Assembly (NCBI GenBank): GCA_963730185.1
Contig: CAVSQW010000007.1
Coordinates: forward strand, 256,001 to 320,000
Direction: 5' to 3'
DNA from: an uncultured Gemmatimonadales bacterium
GTDB taxonomy: Bacteria > Gemmatimonadota > Gemmatimonadetes > Gemmatimonadales > GWC2-71-9
DNA length: 64,000 bases
The notes under the pieces are model-generated. The model saw only the letters and a program-made list of their open reading frames with translations, was not told the origin of the DNA and ran no database searches. Position numbers and translations under genes: made by a program. The first letter of the stretch is position 1. Each line of letters starts with the position of its first letter. Shown piece by piece: positions 3,362 through 64,000 of the stretch.

Positions 3362-5065
3362 TCAGGCCGGAAACCAGCAATGGATCGTGGTTCCCCGGCC
3401 CAAGTCGCTCTCGGCCGAGACGTTGCCGCCGTGGGCCTCGACCAGATGCTTGACGATCGCCAAGCCGAGGCCGGTCCCGCCCTGGTCCCGTGACCGGCTG
3501 GGATCGACCCGATAGAAGCGCTCGAAGATCCGGGGCAGGTGCTCGCCCGGGATCCCGCCCCCGGTGTCACTGACGCTCACCCGGGTGCCTCCCCCGTCCG
3601 GGATCGCCCGCACCCGGATCGACCCGTCGGGCGGGGTGTGCCGGACCGCGTTCTCGAGCAGGTTTCGGAGCACCTGCCGGACCCCGTCCGGATCGGCCCG
3701 CAGGGTCTCGGCGCCGGGCTCGATCGCGACCTCGAAGCGGGCGGCCAGGGCGCCCTTCGGCTGGACCAGCGACCAGGCCTCGCGGCAGGCCTTCTCCAGC
3801 GGAAACGGCTCGGGGCGGGGGCTCCAGTGGCCGGACTCGATCCGGGAGAGATCCAGCTGGTCGTCCACCAGGCGCTGCATCCGCCGGGCGTTGGCCAGGA
3901 TGGTCTCGACGAACCGGCGGGTCATCTCCCGCTCGACGTCGTCGCTGAGCAGGGTTTCGGCATACCCTGAGATCGCGGTCAGCGGGGTCTTGAGCTCATG
4001 CGACACGTTGGCGACGAAGTCCCGCCGGATCGCCTCCAGGCGCCGGAGCCGGGTCAGATCGTGCAGCACCACCACGGCCCCACCGGCCGGAAGCGCCCGG
4101 GCGTTGAGGAGACAGACCCGGTCGCCGATCTCGATCTCCCGCTCGCCCACGGGCGAGCCCTGGAGGGCGCCGGTCACGACCTCGCGGGCGTCGCGGGCCC
4201 GGAAGAGGAGCGGAAGGTCGGGGAGCTGGTCGGTGGGGGCGTAGCCCAGGAGACGCCGGGCCGCTGGATTGGCGGTGACGATCCGGCCCTTCTGGTCCGA
4301 CGAGAGCACCCCCTCCACCATCGCCTCGACGATCGCAGCGGTCTCGTTCTGGCGCTGGCGGAGGTCGTCGAACCGCTCGGTGAGCTGCCGGTGCATCTCC
4401 CGGAGGTCGGCGGTGAGCCGATCCACGTCGGGCATGCCAGACCAGGGGAAGTGCGGCGGCGACCCCCGGGCGATCGCCCGGGCGGCCTCGGAGACCTGCA
4501 CCAGGGGCCGGGTGAATTGCCGTCCGGCCCACCAGGCCATGCTCAGCCCCAGGGCCAGGGCCAGGAGCGCGGCCAGGAACACCGGCCCGAGCGATCGCCG
4601 GACCGAGGCCGAGATCCGATCGAGCGGGGCGGCCACCCGGATCACCCCCGGCCCGCCCGGGACCGCCACGTACATCAGCTCGGTGCCGACCGTGGCGCTG
4701 AGCCGTTTGGCGGTCCCGGGGCGCCCGGCGGCGAGGGCCTCCCGGACCTCGGGGCGGCCGGCGTGGTTCTCGATCCGGGGCAGATCGGCGTCCTCGGCCT
4801 CGGATTCGGCCCGAACCCGGCCGTCGGTGCCGATCAGGGTGACCCGGATCCCGGCCTCGCGGGCGAGGGTCTTGGCGGTGGCCTGCCACTGGGTGGAATC
4901 GGTGGGGAGGGCGGCTCGGACGAGGGCGACTTCGCGCTCGAGACTGGCCCGAGTGTCGGCCTCGAGGTCACGACGGAGCGAGCGTTCGACCCCGACCACC
5001 AAGGCGGTCACGGTGACGAGCAGAACGGCCACCGCGCCGAGAACCAGACGGCCGGTGTAGCTCAC
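3362..5065 (-). CDS. phoR: Phosphate sensor histidine kinase PhoR (TM-HAMP-PAS-HisKA-HATPase)
   Basis: FVANVSHELKTPL H-box, FERFYRVD and GGTGLGLAIVKH; GTG start at 5065 overlaps the phoB stop. Confidence 0.9.
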   Translation of the reverse strand: MSYTGRLVLGAVAVLLVTVTALVVGVERSLRRDLEADTRASLEREVALVRAALPTDSTQWQATAKTLAREAGIRVTLIGTDGRVRAESEAEDADLPRIENHAGRPEVREALAAGRPGTAKRLSATVGTELMYVAVPGGPGVIRVAAPLDRISASVRRSLGPVFLAALLALALGLSMAWWAGRQFTRPLVQVSEAARAIARGSPPHFPWSGMPDVDRLTADLREMHRQLTERFDDLRQRQNETAAIVEAMVEGVLSSDQKGRIVTANPAARRLLGYAPTDQLPDLPLLFRARDAREVVTGALQGSPVGEREIEIGDRVCLLNARALPAGGAVVVLHDLTRLRRLEAIRRDFVANVSHELKTPLTAISGYAETLLSDDVEREMTRRFVETILANARRMQRLVDDQLDLSRIESGHWSPRPEPFPLEKACREAWSLVQPKGALAARFEVAIEPGAETLRADPDGVRQVLRNLLENAVRHTPPDGSIRVRAIPDGGGTRVSVSDTGGGIPGEHLPRIFERFYRVDPSRSRDQGGTGLGLAIVKHLVEAHGGNVSAESDLGRGTTIHCWFPA

Positions 5066-5769
5066 CGGACCCGCGCGACCTTCTCTTGTCCCCGGAAACG
5101 GTAGCCGAAGCCGCGAACCGTCTCGATCATGTCGCCGGCGGGGCCGAGCTTGGTCCGGAGCCGCTGAACGTGCATGTCGACCGTCCGGGTCTGGATGTCG
5201 GGCTGGGCGTCCCAGACCGTCTCCAGCAGCTGAGGCCGGGTCTGGACCCGCCCCCGGCGCTCCACCAGCGTCGCGAGCAGCTTGTACTCCGTCGCCGTGA
5301 GCGAGAGCTCCTCGCCCTCGATCAGCACTCGGTGGGCCGAGCGGTCGATGGTGATCGAGCCGGCGACCAGCTGAGAGCCCGCCGCGACCGATGGGGCCGC
5401 CAGCCGGCGGAGAATCGCCGCCACCCGGAGGGTGAGTTCCTGCGGCGAGAACGGCTTGGTCAGATAGTCGTCGGCCCCGAGGGAAAGCCCCCGGATCCGG
5501 TCCACCTCTTCTCGCCGAGCCGTGAGCAGGATCACCCCCACGTCCCGAGTCTCGGCCTGCTTGCGAAGGGCCTGGAGCACGTCCAGGCCCGAGAGCCCCG
5601 GGAGCATCAGGTCGAGCACGATGACGTCGGGCCGCTGATCGGCCGCGGTCCTGAGGGCCTCGCTTCCGTTCGAGGCGGTGGACACCCGATAGCCGGCCTT
5701 GGCGAGGTGGTAGGCCACCAAGGCCGTGATATCGGGCTCGTCGTCGACCACCAGCACGCGATAGGTCAT
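5062..5769 (-). CDS. phoB: OmpR-family response regulator PhoB
   Basis: Receiver domain (VVDDE, LDLMLP, KPF) plus winged helix (TRTVDMHVQRLRTKL, IETVRGFGY); pst context. Confidence 0.9.
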   Translation of the reverse strand: MTYRVLVVDDEPDITALVAYHLAKAGYRVSTASNGSEALRTAADQRPDVIVLDLMLPGLSGLDVLQALRKQAETRDVGVILLTARREEVDRIRGLSLGADDYLTKPFSPQELTLRVAAILRRLAAPSVAAGSQLVAGSITIDRSAHRVLIEGEELSLTATEYKLLATLVERRGRVQTRPQLLETVWDAQPDIQTRTVDMHVQRLRTKLGPAGDMIETVRGFGYRFRGQEKVARVR

Positions 5770-48914: not shown

Positions 48915-51293
48915 TCAGGGCTGGAGCGCGTGTCGATGCTGGTCCAACGTCTTGAAGGCCGCGGCATCCCGGTCGCCGTCGGCCCACTGGCGCGCCAGCT
49001 CGTCGAGCACGGCCCGGGCGCGATCCGAATGGCCTCGAGCCACCAGGAGGTCGGCCAGCAGGGGCCGTGAGCCGTACCAATCGAAGGTGGCCTCGGAGCC
49101 GAACGCGGGCCCGAGCGGAGCCGCGAGCAGCGCGATGGCCGAATCGGCCTGGCCGGTCGCCGCCAGGGCCTCGCCGGTGCGGACCGTGAGCATCCCGGTC
49201 TGGGGATAGCTGATCGCGCCGGCCAGGAGCCGTCGGGCTTCCAGCGGCCGGTTCTCGGCCAGGAGGAGGTCGCCGGCCAGGAACGCGGCCGACTCCCGGT
49301 CCACGATCCGGCTGGTGTCCGCCGCCTTGGAGAGGAGGTCGAGCATCTCGCCGGCGGTGCCCAGATCGCCGGCTCGGACCAGGGCATGGCCCGCCAGGGC
49401 CAGAAACTGCGGCGCGAACTCCAGCCGCCGAGACAGCTGCGCCACCTCCCGCAAAGTTCGTCGGGCCTCGGCGGAGTCACCCGCCATCAGCAGCGCCAGC
49501 GCCTCGAGCATCCGGCCGCGGGCGATGCTGAACTCGGATCCCTGTTGTCGCGACGCTTCGGTCGCCTGCCGGAAGCTGCCGACGGCCGCGTCGAAACGGC
49601 CGCGCGCCAGAGCGAGGTACGCCAGGCCCCGATGTCCCAGGGTCCGTTCGAAGAGCCCGGGGCGGTCGAGCAGGCCCTCGAAGTGCCGGCGGGCGTCGTC
49701 GGGCCGGCCGTCGAGGAACAGCGCCTCGCCGTATTCGGCCGCGACGTTGTTCTGCCGGAGCACCAGCGAGTCGCGCTCGTCGGCCCGGCGATAGGCCTCG
49801 ACCGCCTCGTGGTAGCGACCGAGCCCCTTGAGCGCCGTGGCCAGGTTGATCAGGACGTTGACCCGGTCGGGCTCGAAGGTCAGGGCCCGGCGAAACGCGT
49901 CGACCGCGGGCTGGTACCGGCGGGCCAGCATCAGCGAGGTGCCGTAGTTGTACCAGGTGGTGACGCTCGGGAATCGCTCCGCGGTCTCGCGGGCGATCCG
50001 CTCGGCCGTGGCGTGATCGCCGCGGTAGTCGGCCGCCGACTCCTCGAGGCGGAGCCGCTCCCAGTCGGTCAGCCGGGCCCGGCGGCGGAGGGCTTCGCGG
50101 TAGTAGGTCTCGCCCACCGCGGGCTGGTTGTGCCAGTAGTACCATCCGCCGAGGGCGCCGAGAGCCATCGCGAACCCGGTGTCGAGGGCCACCGCGCGCT
50201 GCCAGAGGTCCTGGGCCAGGAAGTAGTCGCCGTTGGACCAGGCCGAGACGCCGTTGGCGTAGGAGCGGAGTGCCTCGAGCGACGGGGTCGTCACCTGGGG
50301 CAATGGTACCGCGCGAGCGCGACGGTCGGCCGCCGGCTCGCCCAGTCGGGCCCGAACCCGGTCGAGCACCTGGTCGAGGGCCGGCAGCAGGCCGGCCCGG
50401 GTCTCTGCCGGGGCGGTCAGCCTGGCCACCTGCTGGCCGGTGGTCACGTCGACGAGGGTGGCCGCGAGTTCGTAACCCGGGTCACGCGTCTCCGCCCGGA
50501 GGCCGAGCACGTAGCGGATGCCGTCGCGGACCGCCACTTCCCGGGCCAGCGCCGGGGTGATGGCCACGCCGCTGTCCTCGATCTGCATCCGCCGGAGGAC
50601 GCTTCCGATCCGGGCGCGCGACACCACCTGGAGGTGGCCCGACTGACCCAACGCGACCCGCGCCGCCACCGTCAGGCTCCGATCGAGCAGGGTGTCGCCG
50701 GTGGCGTTGTCCAGGTCGGCGAGGATCAGCGGATCACCGGGGGCAAAGGGCACCGCCGGCGGAGCGCGGGTGACCCAGTAGGCGAGCGCCCCAACGGTCA
50801 GGAGCGCCGCGACCCAGACCGCGCCAGGAAGGGACCGACGGGGCGCCGTCGGCACAATGGCCCGGCCCCGACCCAGGCGGAGGCGAACCTCGGCTGCCCA
50901 CTCCTGGAACTCCGGCGCGCCCGGGATCTCGAAGCCCGACAGGAATTCGGCCCGCTCCACGTCACTCAGCGGCGGGGCCTCCGGCGAAAGGGTCACGTCG
51001 GCCACGATCCGCCCCGGCTGGAACCGCCAGCCGTCCGGCCCTCGTTCTATGCTGGCCGGACCGAGCGCCCCGTCGAGGCGGTCGGCCGCGGCGCCGACGG
51101 TGCGACGGCCCTCGTCGGCGGTCGCGTCCGGCGTGAGCCGGAGGAGCAGCTCGTCCGGCGCGACGCCGTCCTCTTCATGAATGGCAAGCAGGATTGCCAA
51201 GCCGAGCGCTCGGGTATCGTCGCTGACGAGACTCGCCCCGGCGGAGTCGACGAGCCGGGGCGGACCGAGGGTGAGCAGTCGAAACGAGGCCAT
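48915..51293 (-). CDS. Transmembrane protein: shortened SARP-like N-terminus, TM helix, TolB-N-like domain, TPR repeats
   Basis: RLLTLGPPRL, FLSGF..GAPEFQEW, TM, ADLDNATGD, TTPSLEALRSY and ALDTGFAMA, followed by TPRs. Confidence 0.8.
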   Translation of the reverse strand: MASFRLLTLGPPRLVDSAGASLVSDDTRALGLAILLAIHEEDGVAPDELLLRLTPDATADEGRRTVGAAADRLDGALGPASIERGPDGWRFQPGRIVADVTLSPEAPPLSDVERAEFLSGFEIPGAPEFQEWAAEVRLRLGRGRAIVPTAPRRSLPGAVWVAALLTVGALAYWVTRAPPAVPFAPGDPLILADLDNATGDTLLDRSLTVAARVALGQSGHLQVVSRARIGSVLRRMQIEDSGVAITPALAREVAVRDGIRYVLGLRAETRDPGYELAATLVDVTTGQQVARLTAPAETRAGLLPALDQVLDRVRARLGEPAADRRARAVPLPQVTTPSLEALRSYANGVSAWSNGDYFLAQDLWQRAVALDTGFAMALGALGGWYYWHNQPAVGETYYREALRRRARLTDWERLRLEESAADYRGDHATAERIARETAERFPSVTTWYNYGTSLMLARRYQPAVDAFRRALTFEPDRVNVLINLATALKGLGRYHEAVEAYRRADERDSLVLRQNNVAAEYGEALFLDGRPDDARRHFEGLLDRPGLFERTLGHRGLAYLALARGRFDAAVGSFRQATEASRQQGSEFSIARGRMLEALALLMAGDSAEARRTLREVAQLSRRLEFAPQFLALAGHALVRAGDLGTAGEMLDLLSKAADTSRIVDRESAAFLAGDLLLAENRPLEARRLLAGAISYPQTGMLTVRTGEALAATGQADSAIALLAAPLGPAFGSEATFDWYGSRPLLADLLVARGHSDRARAVLDELARQWADGDRDAAAFKTLDQHRHALQP

Positions 51294-51344
51294 GGGAAAC
51301 AGGCGGTCGGAGCCGCCCCTTGGGAGTAGGCTAGCTCCCGCAAC

Positions 51345-54167
51345 TTAACGGGGCGACCGGCGGTCGTCGCCCTCCAGCCATCGATTCGCGCTGTCGGCCC
51401 GGGCCCGGAGTGGGGCGTCGGCATCGCGCCAAGCCCGAGCGACCCAGGCGTAGTGCGCGCGGGCACTGTCGTTCTGGCCGAGCGCGGCGAAGGCGTGCGC
51501 GAGGAGGTCGTGCAGGTCGCCCGGGTTCACGCTGCCGCCCCACCCATCGGGGGGCGCCCGGAGGGCCGCGCGGAGCGGGCGCAGCGCTTCCGCCGGACGG
51601 CCCGCGTCGATCGCGATGCGACCGAGCTCGCGGTCGAAGCGAGGAAAGGTCGTCACCCGCGAGCCTCGGGCTTCCTCCAGGAGGACGAACGCTTCGCGCG
51701 ACCGGCGGGACTCGCGGAGGAGCAGCGCTTGGACCAGCCGGGCCAAGCGACCGGGTCGTCCGGTGAGCGACCGCTGTTCGAGCGAGGCGACCGCTCGGAC
51801 CAGCGGCGCGACCCGGAGCGAGTCGTCGCGGGCGTCCTGGGCGATCGCCGCCAGGGTGAGGTAGCCGGCCGCCCTGGCGGCGCCCTCGCCTCCCGCCGTG
51901 TTCTGGCGGGCCCGGTCGGCCAACCGGCCGAAGGTCTCGGCCGCCAGCCGGACCCGGAGCGCTTCGTAGTCGAGCATGATGGTGGTGACCGTGTCGCCGA
52001 TCCCGCTTTCGCCCCCTCGGGCGCCGACCCCCGCGCGGGCGAACCGGAGGGCCTCGGCCAGGCGGCCTAACGCGCGGTAGCCGCGGGTGCATTCGACCCG
52101 CATGGCGGCGGTGAGCGGCGCTTCGGCGTCGAGTCGGCACCGGCGCTCGACCCCTCCGACCTCGGCCCGGTGGGCGGCCAGCCGTACCGCGCGGGCGGTC
52201 GTGTCGGCGGGGGGCGCGCCGGCGGCGCGGGCCGCGGCGTGGGCGGAGTCGGCCCGGGCGACGTTGCCATCGTCATCGGCCAGATCGGCGAGTCGGAGCC
52301 AAGGGGCGGGATCGGCCGGCCGGAGTCGGACCCAGCGGCGGAGCACGGCGTCCGCCGCGGGGAACGAATCGGCCTCGCGATAGGCGGTAGCGAGAGCGGC
52401 CAGGTCGCCGCAGGCGCGGCAGGGCTCGCCGGCGGCGGCGCCCGAGTCGAGGGCAACGGCCCGCTCCAGGAGCGTCGCCACCCTGGCGATCGGCTCTCCG
52501 GCCCGCCAGAACACGTCGGCGGCGCGGACCAGCGCCTCGGGGTCGTTGGGAAAGCTCGCCGCCAGCGAGTCGGCCGCGAGGTAGCCGGCGGGATCATCGC
52601 GCACCGCCGCCAGATGGGCCTGGATGATCAGGCGGTCGCGGGCCGACGCGCGCGACGAGAGGCGGAGCGCCCGCTCGGCCAGCCGGCCCGTCCCGGTGTC
52701 GGCCGCCGCCGCGGCGCTCCGCCAGGCGTAGTAGGCAGCCAGCGCGAAGCTGGAGTCTTCCCGGAGCGCCGACTGGAAGAGACGTCCGGCGGCGAACAGG
52801 TCGTACTGATAGAAGGACCGGAGCCCCTCTTCGTAGAAGCGGTAGGCCAGGGGGGAGCGGGTCGTGATCTCCGCGACCGACACCGCCGGCGCCGTGCTCC
52901 TGAGATCGGCGGCGATCAGCGTCGTCGCGCTGTCCACCAGGTCGAACCGGGTCGCGCCGCTGACCCGGTAGCCCCGGACCACCATGCCCGATCCGAGGTC
53001 CACTCGCCGGACGTCGAGCTGGAGTCCCCCGCCGGCCCGGGTGGAGACGTCGCCCTCCAGCACCTCGGTGGCGCCGGCCTGCCGCGCGGCCCGCGCTCGG
53101 GCGTCGGCCCCGACCGATGGTCCGGCGGGGAGCAGCTCGAGCAGCCGCGAGGTCGCCACCACCTCGACGTTGGCCAGCCGGCTCAGGCTGGTGGTGAGCA
53201 TGTCGGCCAGGATCTGGCTCACCTGGGCCGAGTCGGGGTTGGGGACGTCGCGAATCAGGCCGACGGCGATGACCAGCCCCGTTCCCTGACCCGGCCGGTC
53301 GCGCCGGCCGAACCCGAGCCAGAGGCCGACCGCCACCGCAACCACGACGATCACCGCGATGGCCCACCGGCCCGTCAGCGTCGCCCGGCGGCCGGCGCCC
53401 GGTGGGGTCGCAGCCGATCCGGAGGGCTGATCGGGGCGGTCCGGCCCGGGCCCGGCGGCCGGCGCCTCGGCCCGGAGCTTGGCCGCGAGTGCGACCACCG
53501 CTTCGTCCGGCTCGACGCCGAGCGTCTCTCGCACCGCCTCCGCGTGGGTCCGCGCGTGCGCGAGTGCGCCGGCCCGATCGCCCAGGCCAGCGAGCGTTTC
53601 CATGTATCGGAGCGCGAACCGACCGCTCAGCGGGTCGATCACGGTGAGCCGCGCCGCCAGGTCGGTGGCCCGGCGCCGATCGCCCGAGGTCACGGCCCGC
53701 GCCAGGCCGGCGTCGAGGGCGCGGATCGCCTGGGTCCGGATCGTCTGGCGCTCGGTCTCGACCCACTGGTCGAAGGCCGGAGCGTCCTGGAGGTAGAAGC
53801 CGTCGAGAAAGGGCCCGCGATAGAGGTCGATGGCCCGGTCCCACTCCCCCCGCTGGATCGCATCCCGGAAATCGTCGAGGTCGCTCCGGACCCGCTCGGG
53901 ATCGAGCCGGATCGCCGGCTCGGCCACCACCACCTCGATGCCGAGAACCCGCTTCAGGCTGTACAGGGTCTGGGAGAGCGCGTGACGGGCCCGGGCTTCG
54001 TCACGGTCGGGCCAGAGGACGCCCAGAAGTCGGTCACGCGAGGCGCCGGCGTCGCGCGCCGCGGCCAGCACGGCCAGGAGGGCCAGCCAGCGGGGGCGAG
54101 GAACGGGGCCGTCGGCCCCGCCGGCGCTTTCCAGCCAGAGCCCGCCCAGCGTGTTGAGCCGCAACAC
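51345..54167 (-). CDS. Transmembrane SARP/BTAD-TPR regulator-like protein
   Basis: LRLNTLGGL, LWPDRDEARARHALSQTLY, LYRGPFLDGF, DPLS, TM and TTRSPLAYRFY, followed by TPRs. Confidence 0.85.
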   Translation of the reverse strand: MLRLNTLGGLWLESAGGADGPVPRPRWLALLAVLAAARDAGASRDRLLGVLWPDRDEARARHALSQTLYSLKRVLGIEVVVAEPAIRLDPERVRSDLDDFRDAIQRGEWDRAIDLYRGPFLDGFYLQDAPAFDQWVETERQTIRTQAIRALDAGLARAVTSGDRRRATDLAARLTVIDPLSGRFALRYMETLAGLGDRAGALAHARTHAEAVRETLGVEPDEAVVALAAKLRAEAPAAGPGPDRPDQPSGSAATPPGAGRRATLTGRWAIAVIVVVAVAVGLWLGFGRRDRPGQGTGLVIAVGLIRDVPNPDSAQVSQILADMLTTSLSRLANVEVVATSRLLELLPAGPSVGADARARAARQAGATEVLEGDVSTRAGGGLQLDVRRVDLGSGMVVRGYRVSGATRFDLVDSATTLIAADLRSTAPAVSVAEITTRSPLAYRFYEEGLRSFYQYDLFAAGRLFQSALREDSSFALAAYYAWRSAAAAADTGTGRLAERALRLSSRASARDRLIIQAHLAAVRDDPAGYLAADSLAASFPNDPEALVRAADVFWRAGEPIARVATLLERAVALDSGAAAGEPCRACGDLAALATAYREADSFPAADAVLRRWVRLRPADPAPWLRLADLADDDGNVARADSAHAAARAAGAPPADTTARAVRLAAHRAEVGGVERRCRLDAEAPLTAAMRVECTRGYRALGRLAEALRFARAGVGARGGESGIGDTVTTIMLDYEALRVRLAAETFGRLADRARQNTAGGEGAARAAGYLTLAAIAQDARDDSLRVAPLVRAVASLEQRSLTGRPGRLARLVQALLLRESRRSREAFVLLEEARGSRVTTFPRFDRELGRIAIDAGRPAEALRPLRAALRAPPDGWGGSVNPGDLHDLLAHAFAALGQNDSARAHYAWVARAWRDADAPLRARADSANRWLEGDDRRSPR

Positions 54168-54311
54168 GTTATGCGCGAGATGATAGTCCGGTGACACGAG
54201 TCGGGTAGCGATTGGGGGTCGACCGACGACCGCGGTGACTACCCCGCGATTCTACCCCGGTTCGCGCCGCTCCGGCAAGGCGAGCGGCCCGATCCATCGC
54301 CGAGGAAGACG

Positions 54312-54764
54312 ATGCCCGGTTTCCTGATGCTCTCGCTCGTGGTCGGTGTGATGCTCGCGACCGTGCCCAATGAGCTGGCGGCGCAGCGCCGCTGGCAGGC
54401 CGATATCCGGATCGAGAGCCTGGACATCGCCCCGGTGGGGCAGGGCAGCCTGACGGTTCGGATCCAGGTGGCCAGCGACGACCAGGAGACCGCGCGCGAG
54501 AGCCGCCTCGAGGTGCTGGTGCCGGTAGGGCTCGAGGTCCTTCGCCTCGGGGCCGGCTGCCGGGCCAGCGCCTCGGCCGTGCCCCATCTCACCGGGAGGG
54601 TTACCTGCGAGCTGGGTGACATCCCGGTCCGAGGGCTGCGCGAGGTGCTCCTGGTCACCACCCGCCCGCCGGCCGGCGCCGTGGCCCACTTCGCCGCGTT
54701 CGTGATGAGCAACACCCCCGATCCGCGGCCGGCGAACAACTTCGCGGAGCGTCCGGTCCGATGA
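54312..54764 (+). CDS. Exported DUF11/Ig-like protein
   Basis: Signal peptide; ADIRI, LPxG-like VPVGL, C...VTCELGDI and TPDPRPANN. Confidence 0.7.
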   Translation: MPGFLMLSLVVGVMLATVPNELAAQRRWQADIRIESLDIAPVGQGSLTVRIQVASDDQETARESRLEVLVPVGLEVLRLGAGCRASASAVPHLTGRVTCELGDIPVRGLREVLLVTTRPPAGAVAHFAAFVMSNTPDPRPANNFAERPVR

Positions 54765-55204
54765 CCCCGCTGCGCGCGGTTCCCGTGCTGGTCGTCCTGC
54801 TCGGCCTTCCCGCCGTCGCCCCGGCGCAGTCGGTGGCGCCGGCGGTGGCAGCCGCCCCGTCGCCGATCGCCAATCCGCCGGCACTGCGCGCCAGCGAGAT
54901 CCTGTCGCGGCGCGAGCCTGGGGTGGCCTCGCGGGTTCTGTTCGAGTGGGATCAGGTCCCGGGCGCCCGCGAGTACGTCCTCCAAGGGCGCTGGATCGAT
55001 CCCACCACCTGGGGACTCCACGACCGCGAGTACCGGGTTGGCTCCCGCAACGCGACCGCTTGGACGACTGAGCGCGTCTCCTTCGACGTGTCGCTGCCGC
55101 CGGGTGCGCACTCCTGGGCCGTGGTGGCCGTGTTCGGCCCAGACGAGATCGGCGACTTCGCCCATCCCGCTCACGTGTCCTTCGACCTGCAGGCTTCCCG
55201 ATGA
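54761..55204 (+). CDS. Exported FN3-like beta-sandwich protein
   Basis: Signal peptide; FEWDQVPGAREYVL...LPPGAHSWAVVAV; ATGA coupling. Confidence 0.65.
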   Translation: MTPLRAVPVLVVLLGLPAVAPAQSVAPAVAAAPSPIANPPALRASEILSRREPGVASRVLFEWDQVPGAREYVLQGRWIDPTTWGLHDREYRVGSRNATAWTTERVSFDVSLPPGAHSWAVVAVFGPDEIGDFAHPAHVSFDLQASR

Positions 55205-56280
55205 CCGACCCGACCGTTCGTAGCCCGGCCGCCCGGCTTTCCTGGCTCCGCTCCGTCCTCGGCCTGACCCCGCCTGCCGAGGCCCCGACCGCCCCGCCGT
55301 CTCCTCGCCCGGCCGGCTCGGACACGACCCCCTCCGGCGGGCTGCGGGCCAGCCGGGTCGCCGGCGTCCTGTCGCTCGCGGTGGTGGGGCTGACCGCGGT
55401 CGGGCACGCCCAGGATGAGCGCTACCTCAAGCAGGCGTTCGAAGGCCAGCGGGTCACGGTGCTGATCGACATGCCGGCCACCTCGCAAGGCATCGATCTC
55501 TTTCCCGGCAGCAGCCGGCCGCTCGACTTTCAGAAGTATGCCGCCCGGCTCAAGGAGGACGGCGTCTCCATCAAGGAGGGCGAGCGGAGCCTGATCACCA
55601 AGATCCGGGTCAAGGACGACCTGATCGAGGTCCAACTCGGTGGTGGAGGCTACGGGACCTTTGGGGATGTCTTCGGCTCCGCCTTGACCAACAACGGTGC
55701 CGACAGCGGCGCGGCCCAGCAGCTCAAGAAGAGCAACGAGCGGACCCAGCGACTCGCCTCGGGCTCGCGATTCAACCTCCGCTATCCCAACGGGGTCACG
55801 CCCGCCGACCTCGAGCCCGACGCGATCATCGCCGCTCTGTCGGAGTACGCCACCTTCCCGAATCGCGCCTCACGCGAGAGCGCCGCCCGCCAGGCCGAGC
55901 CGGCCGCCGAGCCGTCGTCGCCGCCCGCCGCCTCGGCCGAGGAGCTCCGAAAGGGCATGCTGCTGGACGAGGTCGAGCGGATCGCCGGCGCCGCCGAAGC
56001 CACCCGGTCCAGCGGACCGGTCGAGACTCGGACCTACGCTACGCACGAGGTCGACTTCTACAACGGCGTCGCGGTCGAGGTGCGGAGGCGCGGCGTGGCC
56101 GGGGCCGCGACGATCCGAAAGGGGATGTTGCAGGAGGAGGTCGAGGGCCTGGCCGGCGCCGCGATCGAAAGCACGATCAACGGCCCGGTCGTCACCAAGA
56201 CGTATCACTGGCAGGACGGCACCCTGGAGGCCGACTTCGTGAATGGGGTGCTGGTCGGCTACCGGATCGTGGCCCGTTGA
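55201..56280 (+). CDS. Exported protein with two C-terminal BamE/SmpA-like repeats
   Basis: LRKGMLLDEVERIAG...VDFYNGV and IRKGMLQEEVEGLAG...ADFVNGV; ATGA coupling. Confidence 0.7.
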   Translation: MTDPTVRSPAARLSWLRSVLGLTPPAEAPTAPPSPRPAGSDTTPSGGLRASRVAGVLSLAVVGLTAVGHAQDERYLKQAFEGQRVTVLIDMPATSQGIDLFPGSSRPLDFQKYAARLKEDGVSIKEGERSLITKIRVKDDLIEVQLGGGGYGTFGDVFGSALTNNGADSGAAQQLKKSNERTQRLASGSRFNLRYPNGVTPADLEPDAIIAALSEYATFPNRASRESAARQAEPAAEPSSPPAASAEELRKGMLLDEVERIAGAAEATRSSGPVETRTYATHEVDFYNGVAVEVRRRGVAGAATIRKGMLQEEVEGLAGAAIESTINGPVVTKTYHWQDGTLEADFVNGVLVGYRIVAR

Positions 56281-56294
56281 GCGGAGGAGGAAGG

Positions 56295-57194
56295 ATGCGA
56301 CGACGATCTCCGGTCCGCGGGGCGATCCTCGCCCTCATGGCCCTGGGCCTGACGGCGTCTCTCGGCACGGCCCAGTCGCCCCTCAGGCGGCTCAAGAAGC
56401 TCAAGGAGTCCGTCAAGAAGACGATCGACACGGTGGCGTCCGGGACGGCCGCCCGGGTCATCGACAGCAGCAAGCTGGCCAAGCCGCTGGCGCCGGTGGC
56501 CGCGATCCTCGACGGGCGGCTCCCGTGCGCGGCCGACACCGCGCTCTCGGTCGGGACGACGGTGGTGTCGGAGGTCAAGCGCGACCTCGCCCTGGGCGAT
56601 ACCACGGGCACCGCCGCGCGGAACGGCGGTTCTCCCTGCGCGACGGACTCCGCGGCGCCGCCAGCGTCGGCCGCGGCGGCGGTGGTGCCCGGGACGATGG
56701 CCGCCCCGGTGACCGGTCCGGCCAGCGGTGCCGCCGCGGTCGTGGGCACCGCGATCGTGGCCGCCCCGATCGTGCGCCTGGGCGCCAAGAGCCTGTTCGG
56801 CGACAAGCCGCGAACCGCGTCCGACGTGCTCAAGGAGCTGATCGAGAAGGGGCGGGTTACGGTCAAGGGATTCACCTTCCTCCCCGCCAGCGACCGCGCC
56901 GAGCCGGTTCCCGGTCCCTTCATCGAGCCGGTCGCCGAAGCGCTCGCCGCGTTCGACGGCAAGATCGGCGTGCACGTCTGCCTCGAGGAGAACCCCCGGC
57001 TCGCCACCCCCGACACCGCCCTGGTGCGCCGCCGGATGGAGCGGGTCTGGGCCACCCTGCTCAGCGTCGGCGCGCCGGACCGGGTGTTCGCGCCGCTGGC
57101 CGAGACGCCGCTCGACCTCGTCGCCGAGCGCCACCCGGCCAAGCTCGGCCGGGCCGAGGTCGAGCTGGTCCTGCTGCCGGAGGCCAAGCCATGA
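56295..57194 (+). CDS. Exported protein with degenerate OmpA-like C-terminal domain
   Basis: GGAGG RBS and signal peptide; KGRVTVKGFTFLPASD...RRMERVWATLLSVG...RAEVELV. Confidence 0.6.
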   Translation: MRRRSPVRGAILALMALGLTASLGTAQSPLRRLKKLKESVKKTIDTVASGTAARVIDSSKLAKPLAPVAAILDGRLPCAADTALSVGTTVVSEVKRDLALGDTTGTAARNGGSPCATDSAAPPASAAAAVVPGTMAAPVTGPASGAAAVVGTAIVAAPIVRLGAKSLFGDKPRTASDVLKELIEKGRVTVKGFTFLPASDRAEPVPGPFIEPVAEALAAFDGKIGVHVCLEENPRLATPDTALVRRRMERVWATLLSVGAPDRVFAPLAETPLDLVAERHPAKLGRAEVELVLLPEAKP

Positions 57195-58216
57195 CCCGTC
57201 GCACCGCGTTCCTGCTCGCCCTTGCCGCCCCGCTCCCGGCGCCGGCCCTGCTGGCGCAAGGAGCCGGCGGGCCGGCGGCCCGGCTCCGGGTGGCCGTGAT
57301 GGACCTCTCGGGCTCGGCGCTCAAGATGCAGACTACGCAGATGCCTGTGGCCGCGCCGCCGCCGGCCTACCCGCCGCCCCAGCAGCAGGGGCAACAGACC
57401 ACCGTCACCATCGCCATCCCGCCACCGAGCGAGTTCGCGCGCGGACTCACCGAGATCCTCACGACGGTGCTGGTCCGCACCGGGCGGTTCGTGGTGCTCG
57501 AGCGGGCGGCGATGCAGCAGATCGACCAGGAGCAGGCCATGGCCGCGGCGGGGAAGGTCACCCAGCAGACCGCCGCCAAGCAGGGCGCCATCCTGGGTGC
57601 GCAGGCGCTGATCACCGGCGACATCACCGGGTTCACGTTCGACCGGTCCAGCATCGGCGGGCAGGTCAACAACGTGATCAAGGGCCTGAGCGTGGCGACC
57701 GAGCGGGTCAGCGCGCAGGTGATCATCGACCTCCGTCTGATCGACGCCAGCACCGGCCAGATCCTCCACTCCGCCAAGGGCAGCGGCAAGGCCAGCCAGA
57801 CCGGCATCGCCGCCGACCTGATCAAGGACGACAAGAGCATCAGCGCCGACGCCTCGATGACGACCCCGCTGGGACAGGCCTCCCGCCAGGCCATCCAGAC
57901 GGCGGTGGCCAATCTGCTGGTCGGGATGCCACACATTCGCTGGAGCGCCCGGGTCGTCGACGTCCGGGACGGCGTGGTGTACCTGAACGCGGCCGGGGCC
58001 GACGGGATGCGCCCCGGGATGCGGCTCGAGGTCTACGAGGCGGGCGAGGCCTTGGTCGATCCGGAGACCGGGCTCTCGCTCGGCGCGCCGGAGAAGCGCC
58101 TCGGCGAGATCGTGATCGAGTCCGTGCTCGAGAAGTTCAGCACCGCGAAGATCGCGAGCGGCGAAGGGATCGCCCGAGGGCAGGTGGTGCGCCTGCCGGG
58201 AGACAAGCAGCCATGA
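57191..58216 (+). CDS. CsgG/HfaB family protein with FlgT C-terminal-like domain
   Basis: GLTEILTTVLVRTGRFVVLER, GAQALITGDIT and DLRLIDASTGQI; C-terminal VYLNAAG..GMRPG...LVDPETG. Confidence 0.85.
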   Translation: MTRRTAFLLALAAPLPAPALLAQGAGGPAARLRVAVMDLSGSALKMQTTQMPVAAPPPAYPPPQQQGQQTTVTIAIPPPSEFARGLTEILTTVLVRTGRFVVLERAAMQQIDQEQAMAAAGKVTQQTAAKQGAILGAQALITGDITGFTFDRSSIGGQVNNVIKGLSVATERVSAQVIIDLRLIDASTGQILHSAKGSGKASQTGIAADLIKDDKSISADASMTTPLGQASRQAIQTAVANLLVGMPHIRWSARVVDVRDGVVYLNAAGADGMRPGMRLEVYEAGEALVDPETGLSLGAPEKRLGEIVIESVLEKFSTAKIASGEGIARGQVVRLPGDKQP

Positions 58217-59511
58217 CGAACGCGACGAAGCGAGTCACCCTGCTGGCCGGGCTCGCGGCCGGCCTCCTGGGCGGCGTCGCGCCATCGGTCGGGGCGCAGT
58301 CCTCCGACGCCGAGGCCCGTCGCCTGGTGCCCTGGCTCGACGTACCGCCCGGGTGGGTTCGGACCGTCGAGAACGGGGTGGTGGGCGTGACCCCGAACGA
58401 CCTCCCGGCCGGCGCGTCGCTCCTGCTCCTGGTCGAGCCGCTCAAGCCGTCCACCGAGTCGCTCGCCGCGGCCTACGATCAGGCGCTTCGCGATCTCGGG
58501 CCCTGGAAGCCGGTGGCCGACCCGCGCGAGCAGCAGCTCGATCACGGCTGGTCGTTCAAGCACGGCCTGGGCGTCGCCACGCTCAACGGCACCAAGTACA
58601 CGGGCCACACGGCGGTCGCACTCCAGGGCGGCCGGCGGGTTCGGATCTGGGCGCTCGCCAACAGCGACGCCACCTACAACCGCTACCAGAGTCAGATCGT
58701 CAACGCGATCGCCAGCGTCCAGGACATCGCGGGGGAGGGCGAGGTCGCCGAGGCGTCTCCGCCCGCCGCGGGGAAGGAGCCGACGGCCGTCGGGCTCGCG
58801 GCGGGATTCGGCGACGGCGTCTCCGGCGTGTACCTCGGGCTCGAGCGCGGCATCCATGCCCGGGCCGGCGTCGGACCGGGCGGGAGCTCGGCGCCCGACA
58901 GCTACATCGGTGACGAGATGGAAGTCGACGTGTTCTACCCGGACGGGACCTATCGCCGGCGGCTGCCGGTTCGCGGTCTGGCGGCCGATCCGACCTGGGA
59001 CCGGGCGAAGCAGGGTCCGCTCTGGGGCTCCTGGTCGCGGACGGGGGACCGGGTCACGATCACCCGAGGCACCTATACCACGAGCTACCGGATCGCCGCC
59101 GACGGACTGGTGAGCGATCGGGACCGGCTCTGGCGCAAGGCGCCGGTGCCCCACGACGCCCGGCTCGACGGGACCTACGTCCGGGACGACTACCGCGATC
59201 CCGACGCGCCCCGCCTGGTGCTCCGATCCGACGGGACCTACGAGGACCGGGGTGGCTTCCTCCACATGGTCGCCGACCTCTGGAACCTGGTGACGCCCGA
59301 CGGCGACGCGATGTCGAGCCGCTGGAGCGGAGCAGAGACCCGGCAGGCCATGGGTCCCGGGAGCGGGACCTACACCTTCGATGCCTTCACCCTGACTCTC
59401 CGCGACCGGAACGGCCGGGTCTGGCAGATCAACGCCATGGTCCCCCCGGGCGAGACGGCGCCCAGTCCCGAGCACCTCTACATCAACGGGCGCTTTCTGG
59501 TGCGGAAGTGA
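58213..59511 (+). CDS. Exported hypothetical protein (alpha/beta N-terminal domain plus repeated small beta domains)
   Basis: Signal peptide; VPPGW, FYPDGTY, LRSDGTY and GSGTY; ATGA coupling to the CsgG-like gene. Confidence 0.75.
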   Translation: MTNATKRVTLLAGLAAGLLGGVAPSVGAQSSDAEARRLVPWLDVPPGWVRTVENGVVGVTPNDLPAGASLLLLVEPLKPSTESLAAAYDQALRDLGPWKPVADPREQQLDHGWSFKHGLGVATLNGTKYTGHTAVALQGGRRVRIWALANSDATYNRYQSQIVNAIASVQDIAGEGEVAEASPPAAGKEPTAVGLAAGFGDGVSGVYLGLERGIHARAGVGPGGSSAPDSYIGDEMEVDVFYPDGTYRRRLPVRGLAADPTWDRAKQGPLWGSWSRTGDRVTITRGTYTTSYRIAADGLVSDRDRLWRKAPVPHDARLDGTYVRDDYRDPDAPRLVLRSDGTYEDRGGFLHMVADLWNLVTPDGDAMSSRWSGAETRQAMGPGSGTYTFDAFTLTLRDRNGRVWQINAMVPPGETAPSPEHLYINGRFLVRK

Positions 59512-59572
59512 GCCGGCCGGACTGCCGGCCACGAACCTTTCTCGCGTTCTCGGCGCGTGGCGCCGACTGGAG

Positions 59573-60445
59573 ATGACGACAATGCGCTCTTCTCTCATCG
59601 TGGTGCTGATCGCCGGCCTCGGCCTCGGGGCGACGACCTCGTCGCCGGCCCAGATCCGAACCAGGCTCCGGCGCATCGCTCCCCCAGCGGTGACCAGCGG
59701 CCACTATCGGGTGATGATCCTCGGCGCGCGGGTCGATCAGGAGACCGAGGACGACTTCCTCGAGCGCGACGGGAAGCGGGACGAGATCTACTTCGCCGCT
59801 CGGGTGCAGCAGTTCGACCGACGCGATCAGCGAACGCTCGCGGACGGCGTGGTGCGGAGCGGCATCATGGGTGACGTCAACGGGTTCCCCGCGCGGATGC
59901 GGGCCGGGTCGGCGAGCCCGCAGGGTGGAATCCGGACCGGCGACAACGTGCCGGCCGTGGGCGACGTCGCGGCCTACAGCGCCCCTCCGGTCGCCGGGGG
60001 CCTCCCGCTGCTGGTCTGGGATGGCACGCTGCGCGATGGCATCGACGTGATCGTGGTGCAGTCGGACGTGTGGGAGTGGGATGGGGACCCTGCGCTCTAC
60101 AACAGCTGGGTCTACTGGACCTCGCGGTTGACGGCGGCCGATCCCGACGTTCAACGGCTGACCGCTTCCCGGACCCTCACCCTGGATGGACCGCGCGACT
60201 TCGAGCTCGGGGATCTGCGCGCCGGGGTCGACCGCCCGATCGCGGTGTTCAAGGCGGGGTCCTCCAAGGCGCGCTGGAACGATCATTTCCTGGTGTTGAC
60301 CCGGGAGGCGATCGAAGCGGCCATCCAGAATTGGAGCGCCGTGGGCGGTCGGCCGCCGGTCACGCTCGACCGGGTGCAGCGGGGCTATGTCGACAAGCAG
60401 GACGGCGTCTACCACATCTACTTCCGCATCGAACGGCTGCCCTGA
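59573..60445 (+). CDS. Exported protein, unrecognised DGKxDE/VWEWDG domain, paralogue 1
   Basis: GGAG RBS, signal peptide, and motifs shared with the next three ORFs. Confidence 0.85.
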   Translation: MTTMRSSLIVVLIAGLGLGATTSSPAQIRTRLRRIAPPAVTSGHYRVMILGARVDQETEDDFLERDGKRDEIYFAARVQQFDRRDQRTLADGVVRSGIMGDVNGFPARMRAGSASPQGGIRTGDNVPAVGDVAAYSAPPVAGGLPLLVWDGTLRDGIDVIVVQSDVWEWDGDPALYNSWVYWTSRLTAADPDVQRLTASRTLTLDGPRDFELGDLRAGVDRPIAVFKAGSSKARWNDHFLVLTREAIEAAIQNWSAVGGRPPVTLDRVQRGYVDKQDGVYHIYFRIERLP

Positions 60446-60519
60446 CCAGGTCCGCCGTGCGGCCTGATCCGAAGAGCCACCGACGCCCGACCGTGTCCCG
60501 TCGTGAATGGAGGCAAACC

Positions 60520-61419
60520 ATGCGCTTCTCCCGGCTGCTCGTGCTGCTGACCGGTCTCGCCTTGGGAGCGAGCGGATCGCTCGAGGCCCAGGTGACCCGG
60601 TCTCCGACCCGCCGCAAGTTGGCCCCTCGTTCCCTGGTGGCCACCAGCGGGAATTATCGGGTCCTGATCCTCGGGACCCACGTCGCCACCGAGACGTCGG
60701 ACGACCCGTTGCAGCGCGACGGGAAGCGGGACGAGATCTACTTCGCCGCGCTCGTCCGGCAGTTCGATCGTCGCGATCAGCGGCTGCTGTACACCGCCGT
60801 CCCCCAGACCAACGTCATGGGCGATCGCAACGGCTACTCGGCCCGGACCCAGGCCGGCTCGGCCAGCTCGATGGGCGGGATCCGCGCGGGGGACAACGTG
60901 CCGAACGTGCCCGACGTGGGGTCGCTCCAGGCGGCGCCGGTCGCCGCGGGTCTGCCGCTCCTGCTCTGGCAGGGGCAGCTCCGGGACGGGGTCGACGTGC
61001 TGGTGATCATGCCCGAGGTCTGGGAGTGGGATGGCAACCAGTACGATTTCAACCGGTGGCGGAATCAGCCGGTTCCCCCGCCCGCGGACCCCTCCATCCA
61101 GAGTCTGGTCGCCGCCCACCAGTTCGGGCCATTCCAATCGCTCGCCGGCAACTACGAGTTCGCCCTCACCCCGGCCAGCGTCGCCGGGTCGTACGATCGG
61201 CCGGTCAGGTACAGCCGGCGGCAGTCGGACATCTTCTGGCCGATCAGCGGATTGGTGCTGACGCGGGAGGCGATCGAGGCGGCCTTGAGTCCGTCCGCGG
61301 TCGGCACCGGCCGGCCGCCCGGCACGATCGAGGTGCACCTCCTGGGGGACCGCCTCTGGCCCAGCAACAATGCCGACGGTGACTACTGGCTCTACCTCCG
61401 GGTCGAAAGGGTGCCGTGA
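60520..61419 (+). CDS. Exported protein, same domain, paralogue 2
   Basis: GGAGG RBS and signal peptide (LEA-Q); 37 nt identical to paralogue 1. Confidence 0.85.
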   Translation: MRFSRLLVLLTGLALGASGSLEAQVTRSPTRRKLAPRSLVATSGNYRVLILGTHVATETSDDPLQRDGKRDEIYFAALVRQFDRRDQRLLYTAVPQTNVMGDRNGYSARTQAGSASSMGGIRAGDNVPNVPDVGSLQAAPVAAGLPLLLWQGQLRDGVDVLVIMPEVWEWDGNQYDFNRWRNQPVPPPADPSIQSLVAAHQFGPFQSLAGNYEFALTPASVAGSYDRPVRYSRRQSDIFWPISGLVLTREAIEAALSPSAVGTGRPPGTIEVHLLGDRLWPSNNADGDYWLYLRVERVP

Positions 61420-62045
61420 CCATGCGCCTCCTCCGAGCACCGGCGTCGGGCCAGTACCGGATCGTCGCCGTCGGCGTCCGCGTCAGCCATCAGACCAACG
61501 ACGACTTGCTTCAGCGCGACGGCAAAGGCGACGAGGTCTACGTCGCCGCCTCGGTCCAGCACTTCGATCGCCGCTCTGGCGCCCTGATCGTGGTGCGCCC
61601 GACGGTCTGGGAGTGGGACGGTGTGCCCAAGGGCTACGACCAATGGGCGAGCCGGGTGCCCGGGCTGGCGGCCCAGACCCTCGGGAGCCCGCTGGTCCAG
61701 ACCAAGCTCGCCGCGCTGGATCTCACGGTCGCCCTCGGGGGACCGTTGGGACCGGACGTCGCCGACGCCCTCTACTCCGGGACCACCCGCCTCGTGCCGG
61801 GCGACGACCGGCCGATCGGCGTCGTCGCCTTCGTCAACAACTTTGGTAAGCCCTGGATGGGATGGCACGACCGGCTCTTCGTCGTCACCCGAGAGGCGGT
61901 CGAGCACGCGTTCAGCGCCGGCAGCTCGGTCGGCGGCCGTCTGCCGGCCACCCTCGAGCTCCCCCTCACGGAACCCGGCTCCTACGGCGCCCTGACCTAC
62001 GACGGCAGCTACACTCTCTTCCTGCGGGTGGAACGTGTCCCCTGA
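61416..62045 (+). CDS. Paralogue 3, lacking a signal peptide and about 70 internal residues
   Basis: SGQYRI, DDLLQRDGKGDEVY, VWEWDG, DDRPIG and RVERVP. Confidence 0.75.
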   Translation: MTMRLLRAPASGQYRIVAVGVRVSHQTNDDLLQRDGKGDEVYVAASVQHFDRRSGALIVVRPTVWEWDGVPKGYDQWASRVPGLAAQTLGSPLVQTKLAALDLTVALGGPLGPDVADALYSGTTRLVPGDDRPIGVVAFVNNFGKPWMGWHDRLFVVTREAVEHAFSAGSSVGGRLPATLELPLTEPGSYGALTYDGSYTLFLRVERVP

Positions 62046-62049
62046 ACCC

Positions 62050-63894
62050 ATGCCTCCATCGGGCCGCCGCCACCTCGGAGCCGCCCTGCCGCTGGCCGCG
62101 TTGCTGCTGGGGTCGACGCCCGCCGCGTTGGCCGACGGCTTCGCCCCGGGCCAGCCGTGGACCACCAATCCCTACTACGGCGGGCTGGGCACCTTCTTCG
62201 CCGACGTCACCGGCGACGGCAGGGCCGACGCCATCGCCGTGAACGCCGCGGGCATCACGGTCCGCCGCTCGACCGGAGCGGCCTTTGGATCGAACGAAAC
62301 CTGGAGCGCCGCCTTCTCCGGGACTCGGGGGACCTTCTTCGCCGACGTCACCGGCGACCGTCGCGCCGACGCGATCGCGGTGAACGACGCCGGCATCACG
62401 GTGCGCCGCTCGACCGGATCCGGCTTCGGTTCCAACGAGACCTGGAGCGGTCCGTTCTCTGGAAACCGGGGGACGTACTTCGCCGACGTCACCGGTGACG
62501 GCCGGGACGACGCCATCGTGGTCAACGACGCGGGGATCACGGTCCGCCCCTCAACCGGCAGCGGCTTCGGCGCCAGTCAGACCTGGTACGGGCCGTTCTT
62601 CGGGACCCACGGGATCTCCTTCGCCGACCTGACGGCCGACGGGAAGGCGGACGCCATCGCGGTGGGCGACGCCGGCATCCAGGTGCTGTTCTCCACCGGC
62701 TCCACCTTCGGGGGGCCCCGCGGCCGACCGGCGAGCTGGAGCGATCGGTTCGTCGGCGACCGGGGGACCTTCTTCGCCGACGTTACCGGTGACCATCAGG
62801 CCGACGCGATCGGGGTCTTCACCAACGGCGCGATCCTGGTCCGGCGGGCCGTGACCTCCGGGATGGGCGGGTTCGCCGCTGCCGAGGACTGGTCCCAGTT
62901 CCCGTTCTGGGGGACCCATGGGACCGCGTTCGCCGACCTGGACGGGAACGGGGTCGCCGACGCGATCGCGGTGGGCGACGCCGGAGTGTCGGCTCGACTG
63001 GCCGGAAGCACGATTGCGGCCCGGCCCAGCCTCCGGGGTCAGATCACCCTCACCCGGCCGGCCCCCGCGCCTGCGCCGCCGCCCCCGGCCACGCCGCCAC
63101 CCCAGGGACACTACCAGGTCGGCCTGATCGGCTTCATCGCCAACCGAGCCACCTGGGACAACGCCCTCCAGCTCGACGGCAAGGGCGACGAGGTGTATGC
63201 CAGCACCGACGTCAAGGTGCTCGACCTGAACGGTGCCGCCGTGCCCGCCGGCCTCGACGTCAGCCTTCAGAGCTACGTCTACGGCGATATCAATGGGCAG
63301 ACCGCCCCGAACCGGCGCCAGGGAGGACAAGCGAGCAACCTGGGCGGCTTCGCCAACGGGTCCACGTTTCCCGCCCCACCCCACCTGGCGTGGCCGGTCC
63401 AGCTCGGAGACCCGCGCCGGATCCCGATGCTGCTTTGGTCGGGCACCCTGAGCCGGGGCCTGAACGCGGTGGTGATCACCCCGACCGTCTGGGAGTACGA
63501 CGGCTCGGCGATCGCCGGGGCCTTCACCGGATGGATCCGCTGGGCCCAGCAGACTGCCACCGGCTTCCTGGCCAACGCCCAGACCGCCAGGCAGTACATC
63601 TCCCTTCCCGATATTCCCGAGCTCGACTTCGCCTCGTTGGGCGCGGGGGTGGCGCTCAGCTTCCAAGAGTCGGTTCTCGGCACCGACGGCGACCGCCCCA
63701 TCGGAATGACGCTCGAGGCCGGTCGGGCGGTGTTCCATCCCAAGACCGTGGTGCTCACCTACGACGGCGTGGAGAAGCTCCTGGCCAACCAGATCGGCTC
63801 GTGGCCCAGGGGCACCATCCTCCTGAGCTATCGAGACGACCCCAAGTGGTGGGGCGACTACACCGTGATTCTCCGGGTCGAGCGGCTGCCGTAG
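62050..63894 (+). CDS. Exported protein: six FG-GAP/VCBS-like repeats, Pro linker, paralogue-4 domain
   Basis: FADVTGDGRADAIAV repeats (47-aa period); C-terminal DGKGDEVY, VWEYDG, DRPIG and RVERLP. Confidence 0.88.
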   Translation: MPPSGRRHLGAALPLAALLLGSTPAALADGFAPGQPWTTNPYYGGLGTFFADVTGDGRADAIAVNAAGITVRRSTGAAFGSNETWSAAFSGTRGTFFADVTGDRRADAIAVNDAGITVRRSTGSGFGSNETWSGPFSGNRGTYFADVTGDGRDDAIVVNDAGITVRPSTGSGFGASQTWYGPFFGTHGISFADLTADGKADAIAVGDAGIQVLFSTGSTFGGPRGRPASWSDRFVGDRGTFFADVTGDHQADAIGVFTNGAILVRRAVTSGMGGFAAAEDWSQFPFWGTHGTAFADLDGNGVADAIAVGDAGVSARLAGSTIAARPSLRGQITLTRPAPAPAPPPPATPPPQGHYQVGLIGFIANRATWDNALQLDGKGDEVYASTDVKVLDLNGAAVPAGLDVSLQSYVYGDINGQTAPNRRQGGQASNLGGFANGSTFPAPPHLAWPVQLGDPRRIPMLLWSGTLSRGLNAVVITPTVWEYDGSAIAGAFTGWIRWAQQTATGFLANAQTARQYISLPDIPELDFASLGAGVALSFQESVLGTDGDRPIGMTLEAGRAVFHPKTVVLTYDGVEKLLANQIGSWPRGTILLSYRDDPKWWGDYTVILRVERLP

Positions 63895-63933
63895 CCCGGG
63901 CGACGAACCCCTGACTCTACTGGAGGTGAAGAC

Positions 63934-64000
63934 ATGTCCACCCTGCTGCGCTGGACCACCCCGCTGATCGTCGGCCTCGTCGCCGCGCCATGCCTCACGG
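63934..64000 (+). CDS. Start of a further exported protein (runs off window)
   Basis: GGAGGT RBS then MSTLLRWTTPLIVGLVAAPCLT, signal-peptide-like. Confidence 0.6.
   Translation, partial: MSTLLRWTTPLIVGLVAAPCLT

Follow-up and report, generated by a model that had tools for sequence, protein, structure and literature searches.

Four tandem genes (copies 1 to 4) near the end of a 64,000-nucleotide (nt) stretch of DNA from an uncultured Gemmatimonadales bacterium (contig CAVSQW010000007.1; the whole stretch is called the window here) encode proteins that share one domain. What is this domain, how widely does it occur, and what might it do outside the cell? A sequence-only reading of the array had proposed an unrecognized domain: a C2-like beta-sandwich whose loops are acidic and whose inserts vary. 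Predicted models, a fold search, residue conservation, and couplings bear this out: the predicted fold of the array domain is a C2-type beta-sandwich, with acidic loops predicted to cluster at one tip. Profile and library searches gave no curated family, with no match in Pfam, NCBIfam, PHROGs, or PDB sequences, and no paper on the domain family was found in the literature.

The array domain is predicted to adopt a large type II C2 fold

The predicted model is an eight-stranded antiparallel beta-sandwich with C2 strand order, and its matches in the fold search show the type II (cPLA2-like) topology; the C2 type labels are those that we take the matched entries to carry. Alignments to the cPLA2, Munc13-1 C2B, NEDD4, and perforin C2 domains ran from model residue 1-6 through the last residue, and those to KIBRA and synaptotagmin-7 C2B ended at residue 245 of 263. 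The type II matches (PF00168) included cPLA2 (1rlw and 1cjy), intersectin 2 (3jzy), Munc13-1 C2B (6nyt), extended synaptotagmin C2A (7atp), and a Trichomonas C2 domain (9zk6). In contrast to these, the array domain is twice as large (about 250 amino acids [aa]), likely exported, and stand-alone; its family carries a conserved 45-aa insert in loop 2 and a helical insert of 37 to 165 aa in loop 3, with Glu in the position of the third ligand and Arg in that of the fifth. Identity to the type II domains is 7 to 13%, and profile similarity is undetectable. PF00168 matched none of 54 members at E 0.1, hhalign against 5 bacterial C2 domains gave probabilities of 0.3 to 0.4%, and hhalign with the inserts removed did no better against 9 C2 domains than shuffles did (with a shallow template of Neff [effective number of sequences] 3.5). 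The sequences are therefore compatible with either homology or convergence. No PLAT title was among the fold matches listed, and PLAT/LH2 gave no Pfam match.

Ten charged residues are nearly invariant

In copy 1 numbering, the domain opens with strand 1 (42-56) and acidic loop 1 (57-71). Strands 2 and 3 lead to a conserved Gly-rich insert (100-145), and strands 4 and 5 lead to E168 and D170. After a variable helical insert (171-219) come D220-R221-P222 and strand 6, and a helix precedes the closing strands 7 and 8. Among 295 domains, D60 was kept in 286, D66 in 289, K68 in 264, D70 in 290, E71 in 289, D101 in 283, R108 in 279, E168 in 290, D170 in 292, D220 in 226, and R221 in 281, and 250 domains had all ten key positions intact. 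High scorers are overrepresented in the conservation sets, and the loop-1 motif was used to choose the genome loci; 197 proteins chosen without that motif showed the same conservation. Calcium-binding C2 domains use five acidic ligands, from loops 1 and 3. By-eye fitting to an extended synaptotagmin-2 alignment equates GKSDPY there with GKGDEVY here and DDFLG there with DRPIG here; D60, D70, E168, and D170 would then fill four of the classical ligand places, with R221 at the fifth and D220 adjacent.

Couplings, some of which rest on few degenerate sequences, link loop 1 with loop 3 and the conserved insert with loop 1 (E57-A114, R69-A114, V54-I120, and K68-S115); R108 and R221 are coupled to G100 and position 271. 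The RVERxP end, which the sequence-only reading had taken for either the last strand or a sorting signal, is strand 8, paired with strand 1 in the model and by couplings (L50-R285, R46-E287, Y45-R288, and E248-R288). A sorting signal is not supported, as 43 of 203 members run more than 40 aa past the domain and the final Pro is present in just 45% of the family; the supposedly invariant C terminus thus varies within the family. Two domains occur in 5 of the 203 members. At least two key residues were lost in 14 domains, 9 of which adjoin an intact copy; no intact copy was seen alongside such domains in L016:4858-6873, L085:775-2511, L087:1-2499, and P0080.

The family is large and spans bacterial phyla

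Searching with a profile of four sequences picked out 65 of 8,000 candidate proteins, and a 54-sequence profile found 1,378 clusters (50% identity) at E ≤0.001, 864 of them below 1e-30 (the best 150 of the 1,378 were listed). Scanning 185,579 genomes with a strict motif, which undercounts, gave 74 loci, assigned by title to Gemmatimonadota, Acidobacteriota, Bacteroidota, Verrucomicrobiota, Actinomycetota, Bacillota, and Pseudomonadota; 11 of the loci have two or three copies. The motif matched in 11 of 301 genomes of the window's own phylum, a tally that, like one of the 235 loop-3 inserts described below, includes the unpublished genome G157; no other result uses it. One plasmid in 72,556 carries a leaderless copy, flanked by insertion sequence elements. 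Cultured carriers are Bacillus sp. FJAT-27225, Paenarthrobacter nitroguajacolicus, and Microvirga sp. VF16, and many members are solitary (Bacillus and the Microvirga plasmid).

Bacterial C2 domains of the Pfam type (L101-L104 and L106) are about 115 aa long and score above the PF00168 cutoff, whereas the array family scores below it. They occurred in 4 of 401 genomes around G301 and in 2 of 201 around G302, one of the latter resembling foreign-contig fragments. In L101-L104 (G587, G356, G395, and G368), bacterial proteins carry such a domain at the C terminus; in L102 and L103 it comes after an N-terminal part that is kinase-like and a hydrophobic stretch; L106 (G833) has two C2-like domains around a segment that by eye looks like an HEXXH metalloprotease. 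A 2012 survey describes C2 domains as not known outside eukaryotes and leaves origin from a prokaryotic version open (PMC3495828). A 2026 paper still describes C2 domains as typically not found in prokaryotes, and the cyanobacterial one that it reports, from the syNOS enzyme of Synechococcus PCC 7335 (PDB 9q05; PMC12922734), is a cytoplasmic regulatory domain of 134 aa without classical Asp ligands or array-type inserts. The bacterial C2 fold per se is already known; what appears to be new is a large, doubly inserted, stand-alone, and lectin-fused C2-fold family. With more than 1,000 clusters, at least seven bacterial phyla, and cultured carriers, a prokaryotic origin of C2 domains becomes testable by structure.

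The loop-3 insert is variable and the fusion partners are binding modules

The loop-3 insert (median, 61 aa) is rich in Gly, Ala, and Leu and helical in both predicted models. Its helical moment exceeds that of its own shuffles in 180 of 235 inserts, and 14 have a 19-residue hydropathy above 1.6, which is transmembrane-like. Insert hydropathy is 0.0, 0.46, 1.18, and 1.10 in copies 1, 2, 3, and 4, respectively. By a crude rule, the N termini of 203 members are signal-peptide-like in 149, leaderless in 26, and unclear or partial in 28; five members have lipoprotein-like starts. Insert hydropathy exceeds 1.2 in 16 of 24 leaderless members versus 29 of 128 others, counts in which related sequences are not independent.

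Pfam matches outside the domain were found in 38 of 74 longer members from protein searches and in 19 of 35 from genome loci. The partners are ricin B, AbfB, MIR, fascin/DUF7910, tectonin, B-lectin, fungal lectin, LamG, LGFP, DUF346, DUF7452, LCCL, FG-GAP, FN3, PKD, Ig, and one type IX tail, all of them binding, repeat, or spacer modules. None of the 109 longer members has a catalytic Pfam partner, although 52 of them lack any Pfam match and may hide unknown domains. With only sugar-binding or spacer modules as recognized partners, the C2-fold domain is likely to be the working part of the secreted protein.

A proposed calcium-armed membrane-active protein and its alternatives

With somewhat less than even confidence, we favor a secreted C2-fold protein that is armed by calcium at its acidic tip and whose variable helical insert enters and permeabilizes a foreign membrane. 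The proposal starts from family size, conserved residues, inserts, fusions, and context, all read from sequence, and from a predicted fold and loop clustering; its later steps are inferred. Outside the cell, calcium would fill at least two sites formed by D60, D66, D70, E71, E168, D170, and D220. Docking would be on anionic lipid, with K68 and R221 likely holding lipid phosphate, and the target surface would be chosen by fused lectin, LGFP, or propeller modules, with FN3 and Ig domains as spacers. The loop-3 helices, packed on the sandwich in the model, would then come off and insert, probably after oligomerization, and permeabilize the membrane. Since low cytoplasmic calcium would protect the producer, no immunity gene should be needed; no recurrent immunity-like gene was seen among the neighbors. 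Within the window, copy 4 fits membrane insertion best, and copies 1 and 2, with their polar inserts, may be limited to binding or a helper role.

A precedent for calcium arming a lytic secreted protein through its C2 domain is perforin (PMC7593815). Perforin (MACPF plus C2; PDB 4y1s and 7pag) makes its pore with a separate MACPF domain, whereas no member scanned had a MACPF match, so any inserting element in the array family must be the loop-3 insert. We consider it unlikely that the fullest version of the proposal holds, namely, a new bacterial pore-forming class in which a lectin-retargeted C2 domain is the whole weapon (calcium sensor, membrane dock, and inserting hairpin) and which is also the largest prokaryotic type II C2 radiation so far and a candidate sister of the eukaryotic C2 domains. 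Actinoporins, Cyt toxins, and lectin-fused pore-forming toxins offer parallels in a beta core under detachable membrane-entering helices, exchangeable lectins, and leaderless forms; however, their folds differ from that of the array domain, they are not known to have a comparable calcium cluster, and none of the three groups was among the fold matches listed.

The near invariance of ten charged residues, the Arg at the place of the classical fifth Asp (mapped by eye), and the pairs of intact and degenerate copies would also suit a metal-dependent extracellular enzyme built on the C2 fold, such as a phosphoesterase or lyase with phospholipids or phosphorylated wall glycans as substrates. The acids would hold metals, K68, R108, and R221 would bind the substrate, the conserved insert would be a pocket wall, and the variable helices would be a lid. 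Such an enzyme would account for the invariance and the degenerate partners just as well as membrane insertion would, and enzymes that act on glycans typically carry lectin and FN3 fusions too. We nevertheless place it on the unlikely side: no catalytic C2 domain was among the fold matches listed, the tip has no conserved His, Cys, or Ser nucleophile candidate, and the couplings of R108 and R221 suggest structural salt bridges. Neither SusC/SusD nor glycoside hydrolases were matched in 87 neighbors (chosen by eye, mostly from the 154 nearest), and the transmembrane-like inserts also argue against it. Should the domain itself prove lytic or catalytic, it would be an active C2 fold, not only a docking one, and would offer a new tool class for calcium-triggered membrane binding.

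A structural role, as a calcium-stabilized subunit of an assembly at the surface or in the matrix that includes the co-encoded ring- and tube-forming proteins, seems improbable. It would suit the exported-protein clusters of Gemmatimonadales that pair CsgG and OmpA with tube domains of the Hcp or gp19 type (G121, G081, G137, L011, and L058), the two-domain members, and the lipoprotein-like starts; yet tube-domain genes are absent from the window's own cluster and were not seen outside Gemmatimonadota among scanned neighbors, solitary members are many, and no neighbor family is shared across phyla besides regulators, CsgG, and OmpA. Least probable is a passive calcium-dependent lipid or glycan binder (an adhesin or scavenger) with specificity set by the variable insert, as the sequence-only reading had it. 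The C2 fold, the acidic loops, and the polar inserts of copies 1 and 2 are what such a binder would have, and classical C2 domains are binding modules (PMC12922734). A binding module would be expected to have a catalytic or signaling partner at least sometimes, but the 109 longer members provided none that Pfam recognizes and their partners are yet more binding modules, which makes a mere binding role doubtful.

The array combines a local expansion with an older paralogue

The four open reading frames (ORFs) lie on one strand and together fill 59573-63894 (Table 1). Every four-way and three-way motif quoted in the sequence-only reading was found in the alignment, in which copies 2, 3, and 4 are 51, 44, and 33% identical to copy 1; whole copies 1, 2, and 4 match each other by tblastn at E 4e-66 to 3e-22. 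The GC content at third codon positions is 0.88 to 0.91 across all four, typical for coding frames at 70% genome GC. Of the array, for which export had been claimed throughout, only copies 1, 2, and 4 have, by eye, a signal-peptide-like start. Copies 1 and 2 each have ten of ten key residues, and copy 2 has an orthologue (P0006) at 79% identity. In copy 3, which was not covered by sequencing reads, about 70 residues, equivalent to copy 1 positions 90-159, are lost in frame; the loss takes out strands 3 and 4 together with the conserved insert between them. Copy 3 cannot hold the full acidic site and is a degenerate partner or a decaying gene; the six-stranded remnant could still fold, because both lost strands are edge strands.

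TABLE 1 Features of the array and its surroundings in the window (residues in copy 1 numbering)
Feature	Position	Strand	Description
TPR-rich regulator	48915-51293	-	Divergent from the upstream cluster
BTAD plus TPR regulator	51345-54197	-	Divergent from the upstream cluster
Upstream cluster	54312-59511	+	Six ORFs, most with signal-peptide-like starts
CsgG-family gene	57191-58216	+	In the upstream cluster
Copy 1 (P0001)	59573-60445	+	290 aa, with 59582 as a possible alternative start; signal-peptide-like N terminus and Arg/Pro-rich linker, then one predicted C2-fold domain (residues 42-290), polar 49-aa loop-3 insert
Acidic loop 1, D60 to E71	59750-59785	+	Between strands 1 and 2 in the model; conserved; predicted first calcium-binding loop
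37-nt patch	59763-59799	+	Same letters at 60713-60749; covers acidic loop 1
Gly-rich loop-2 insert, G100-P145	59870-60007	+	Packs on acidic loop 1 and strand 1 (model, couplings); no counterpart in classical C2 domains
Loop 3	60074-60241	+	E168, D170, helical insert G171-V219, D220-R221-P222 (model, conservation)
Strand 8, ending RIERLP	60401-60442	+	Antiparallel to strand 1 (model, couplings)
Copy 2 (P0002)	60520-61419	+	299 aa; signal-peptide-like start, one domain, fairly polar 54-aa insert
Copy 3 (P0003)	61416/61422-62045	+	209/207 aa; without signal peptide
Copy 4 (P0004)	62050-63894	+	614 aa; signal-peptide-like start; Pro-rich linker between repeats and domain
Copy 4 FG-GAP repeats	62170-62984	+	Six repeats
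Copy 4 predicted C2-fold domain	63103-63891	+	More hydrophobic 63-aa insert
Next cluster gene	63934-64000	+	188 aa; extends past the window; also downstream of the array in L003

Diversification by tandem duplication, as the sequence-only reading had it, accounts for copies 1 to 3, but copy 4 falls elsewhere. In a quick tree of 48 domains, copies 1 to 3 cluster with a tandem gene pair from L003 (support 92, or 97 when copy 3 is left out), a related locus that has a three-copy cluster flanked by the same genes; copy 4 joins the FG-GAP fusion of L003, whose domain is 84% identical, in a distant subfamily (support 99 to 100). The array is thus a local expansion plus an older, different paralogue. 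The 37-nt identity reported between copies 1 and 2 is exact. All 11 of its codons agree, whereas the codon is shared at 68 of the 133 other identical residues of copies 1 and 2 (p about 6e-4, uncorrected for the one or two runs that might have shown it); it is likely a gene-conversion patch.

The same genome has a fifth copy, which is complete, on contig C7 (629568-630365), preceded by FN3-like repeats. This copy (L001:4828-6387) ends in a Cys-containing tail, has Ser/Thr kinase genes around it, and sits on a long tree branch. A sixth, broken copy on contig C6 (L002, about 4430-5230) retains a signal-peptide-like start, an FN3-like piece, and the last third of the domain in three frames.

Gene neighborhoods

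In Gemmatimonadales, the genes sit in exported-protein clusters that diverge from BTAD/TPR regulator genes and often include CsgG, OmpA, and tube domains of the Hcp or gp19 type. L003 has counterparts, in the same order, for five of the six positions of the upstream cluster, and the divergent regulator arrangement recurs at related loci. The layout of regulators and cluster was seen in the window (48915-54197 and 54312-64000) and in L003, L089, L090, L094, L095, and L096. Exported proteins of these clusters have mature N termini rich in Arg, Pro, and Thr, a shared character that might be a second targeting or processing signal. The gene at 56297-57194 encodes an exported protein with no Pfam match and, by eye, a C-terminal part like a degenerate OmpA-type domain; it has the same place in L003.

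Hcp (PF05638) or T4 gp19 tail-tube (PF06841) proteins with signal-peptide-like starts, some with two tube domains, were seen at L089:8592-16816 (G121), L090:9864-16030 (G081), L095:11030-12232 (G137), L011:2499-5116, and L058:428-949. Their clusters include OmpA and FN3 exported proteins, with no other secretion-system or phage gene seen nearby. In Gemmatimonadales, these proteins may make up an undescribed system of exported tubes or rings. In Bacteroidota, C2-fold genes often follow two-component regulators. At most loci of Chitinophagaceae and Flavobacteriaceae (L027, L028, L030, L035, L037, L041, L042, L045, L054-L057, and L060-L062), an unnamed gene for an exported or lipoprotein-like protein of 200 to 330 aa lies directly upstream of the C2-fold gene. 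The products form one BLAST cluster of 17 with no Pfam match and are possible partners of the C2-fold protein.

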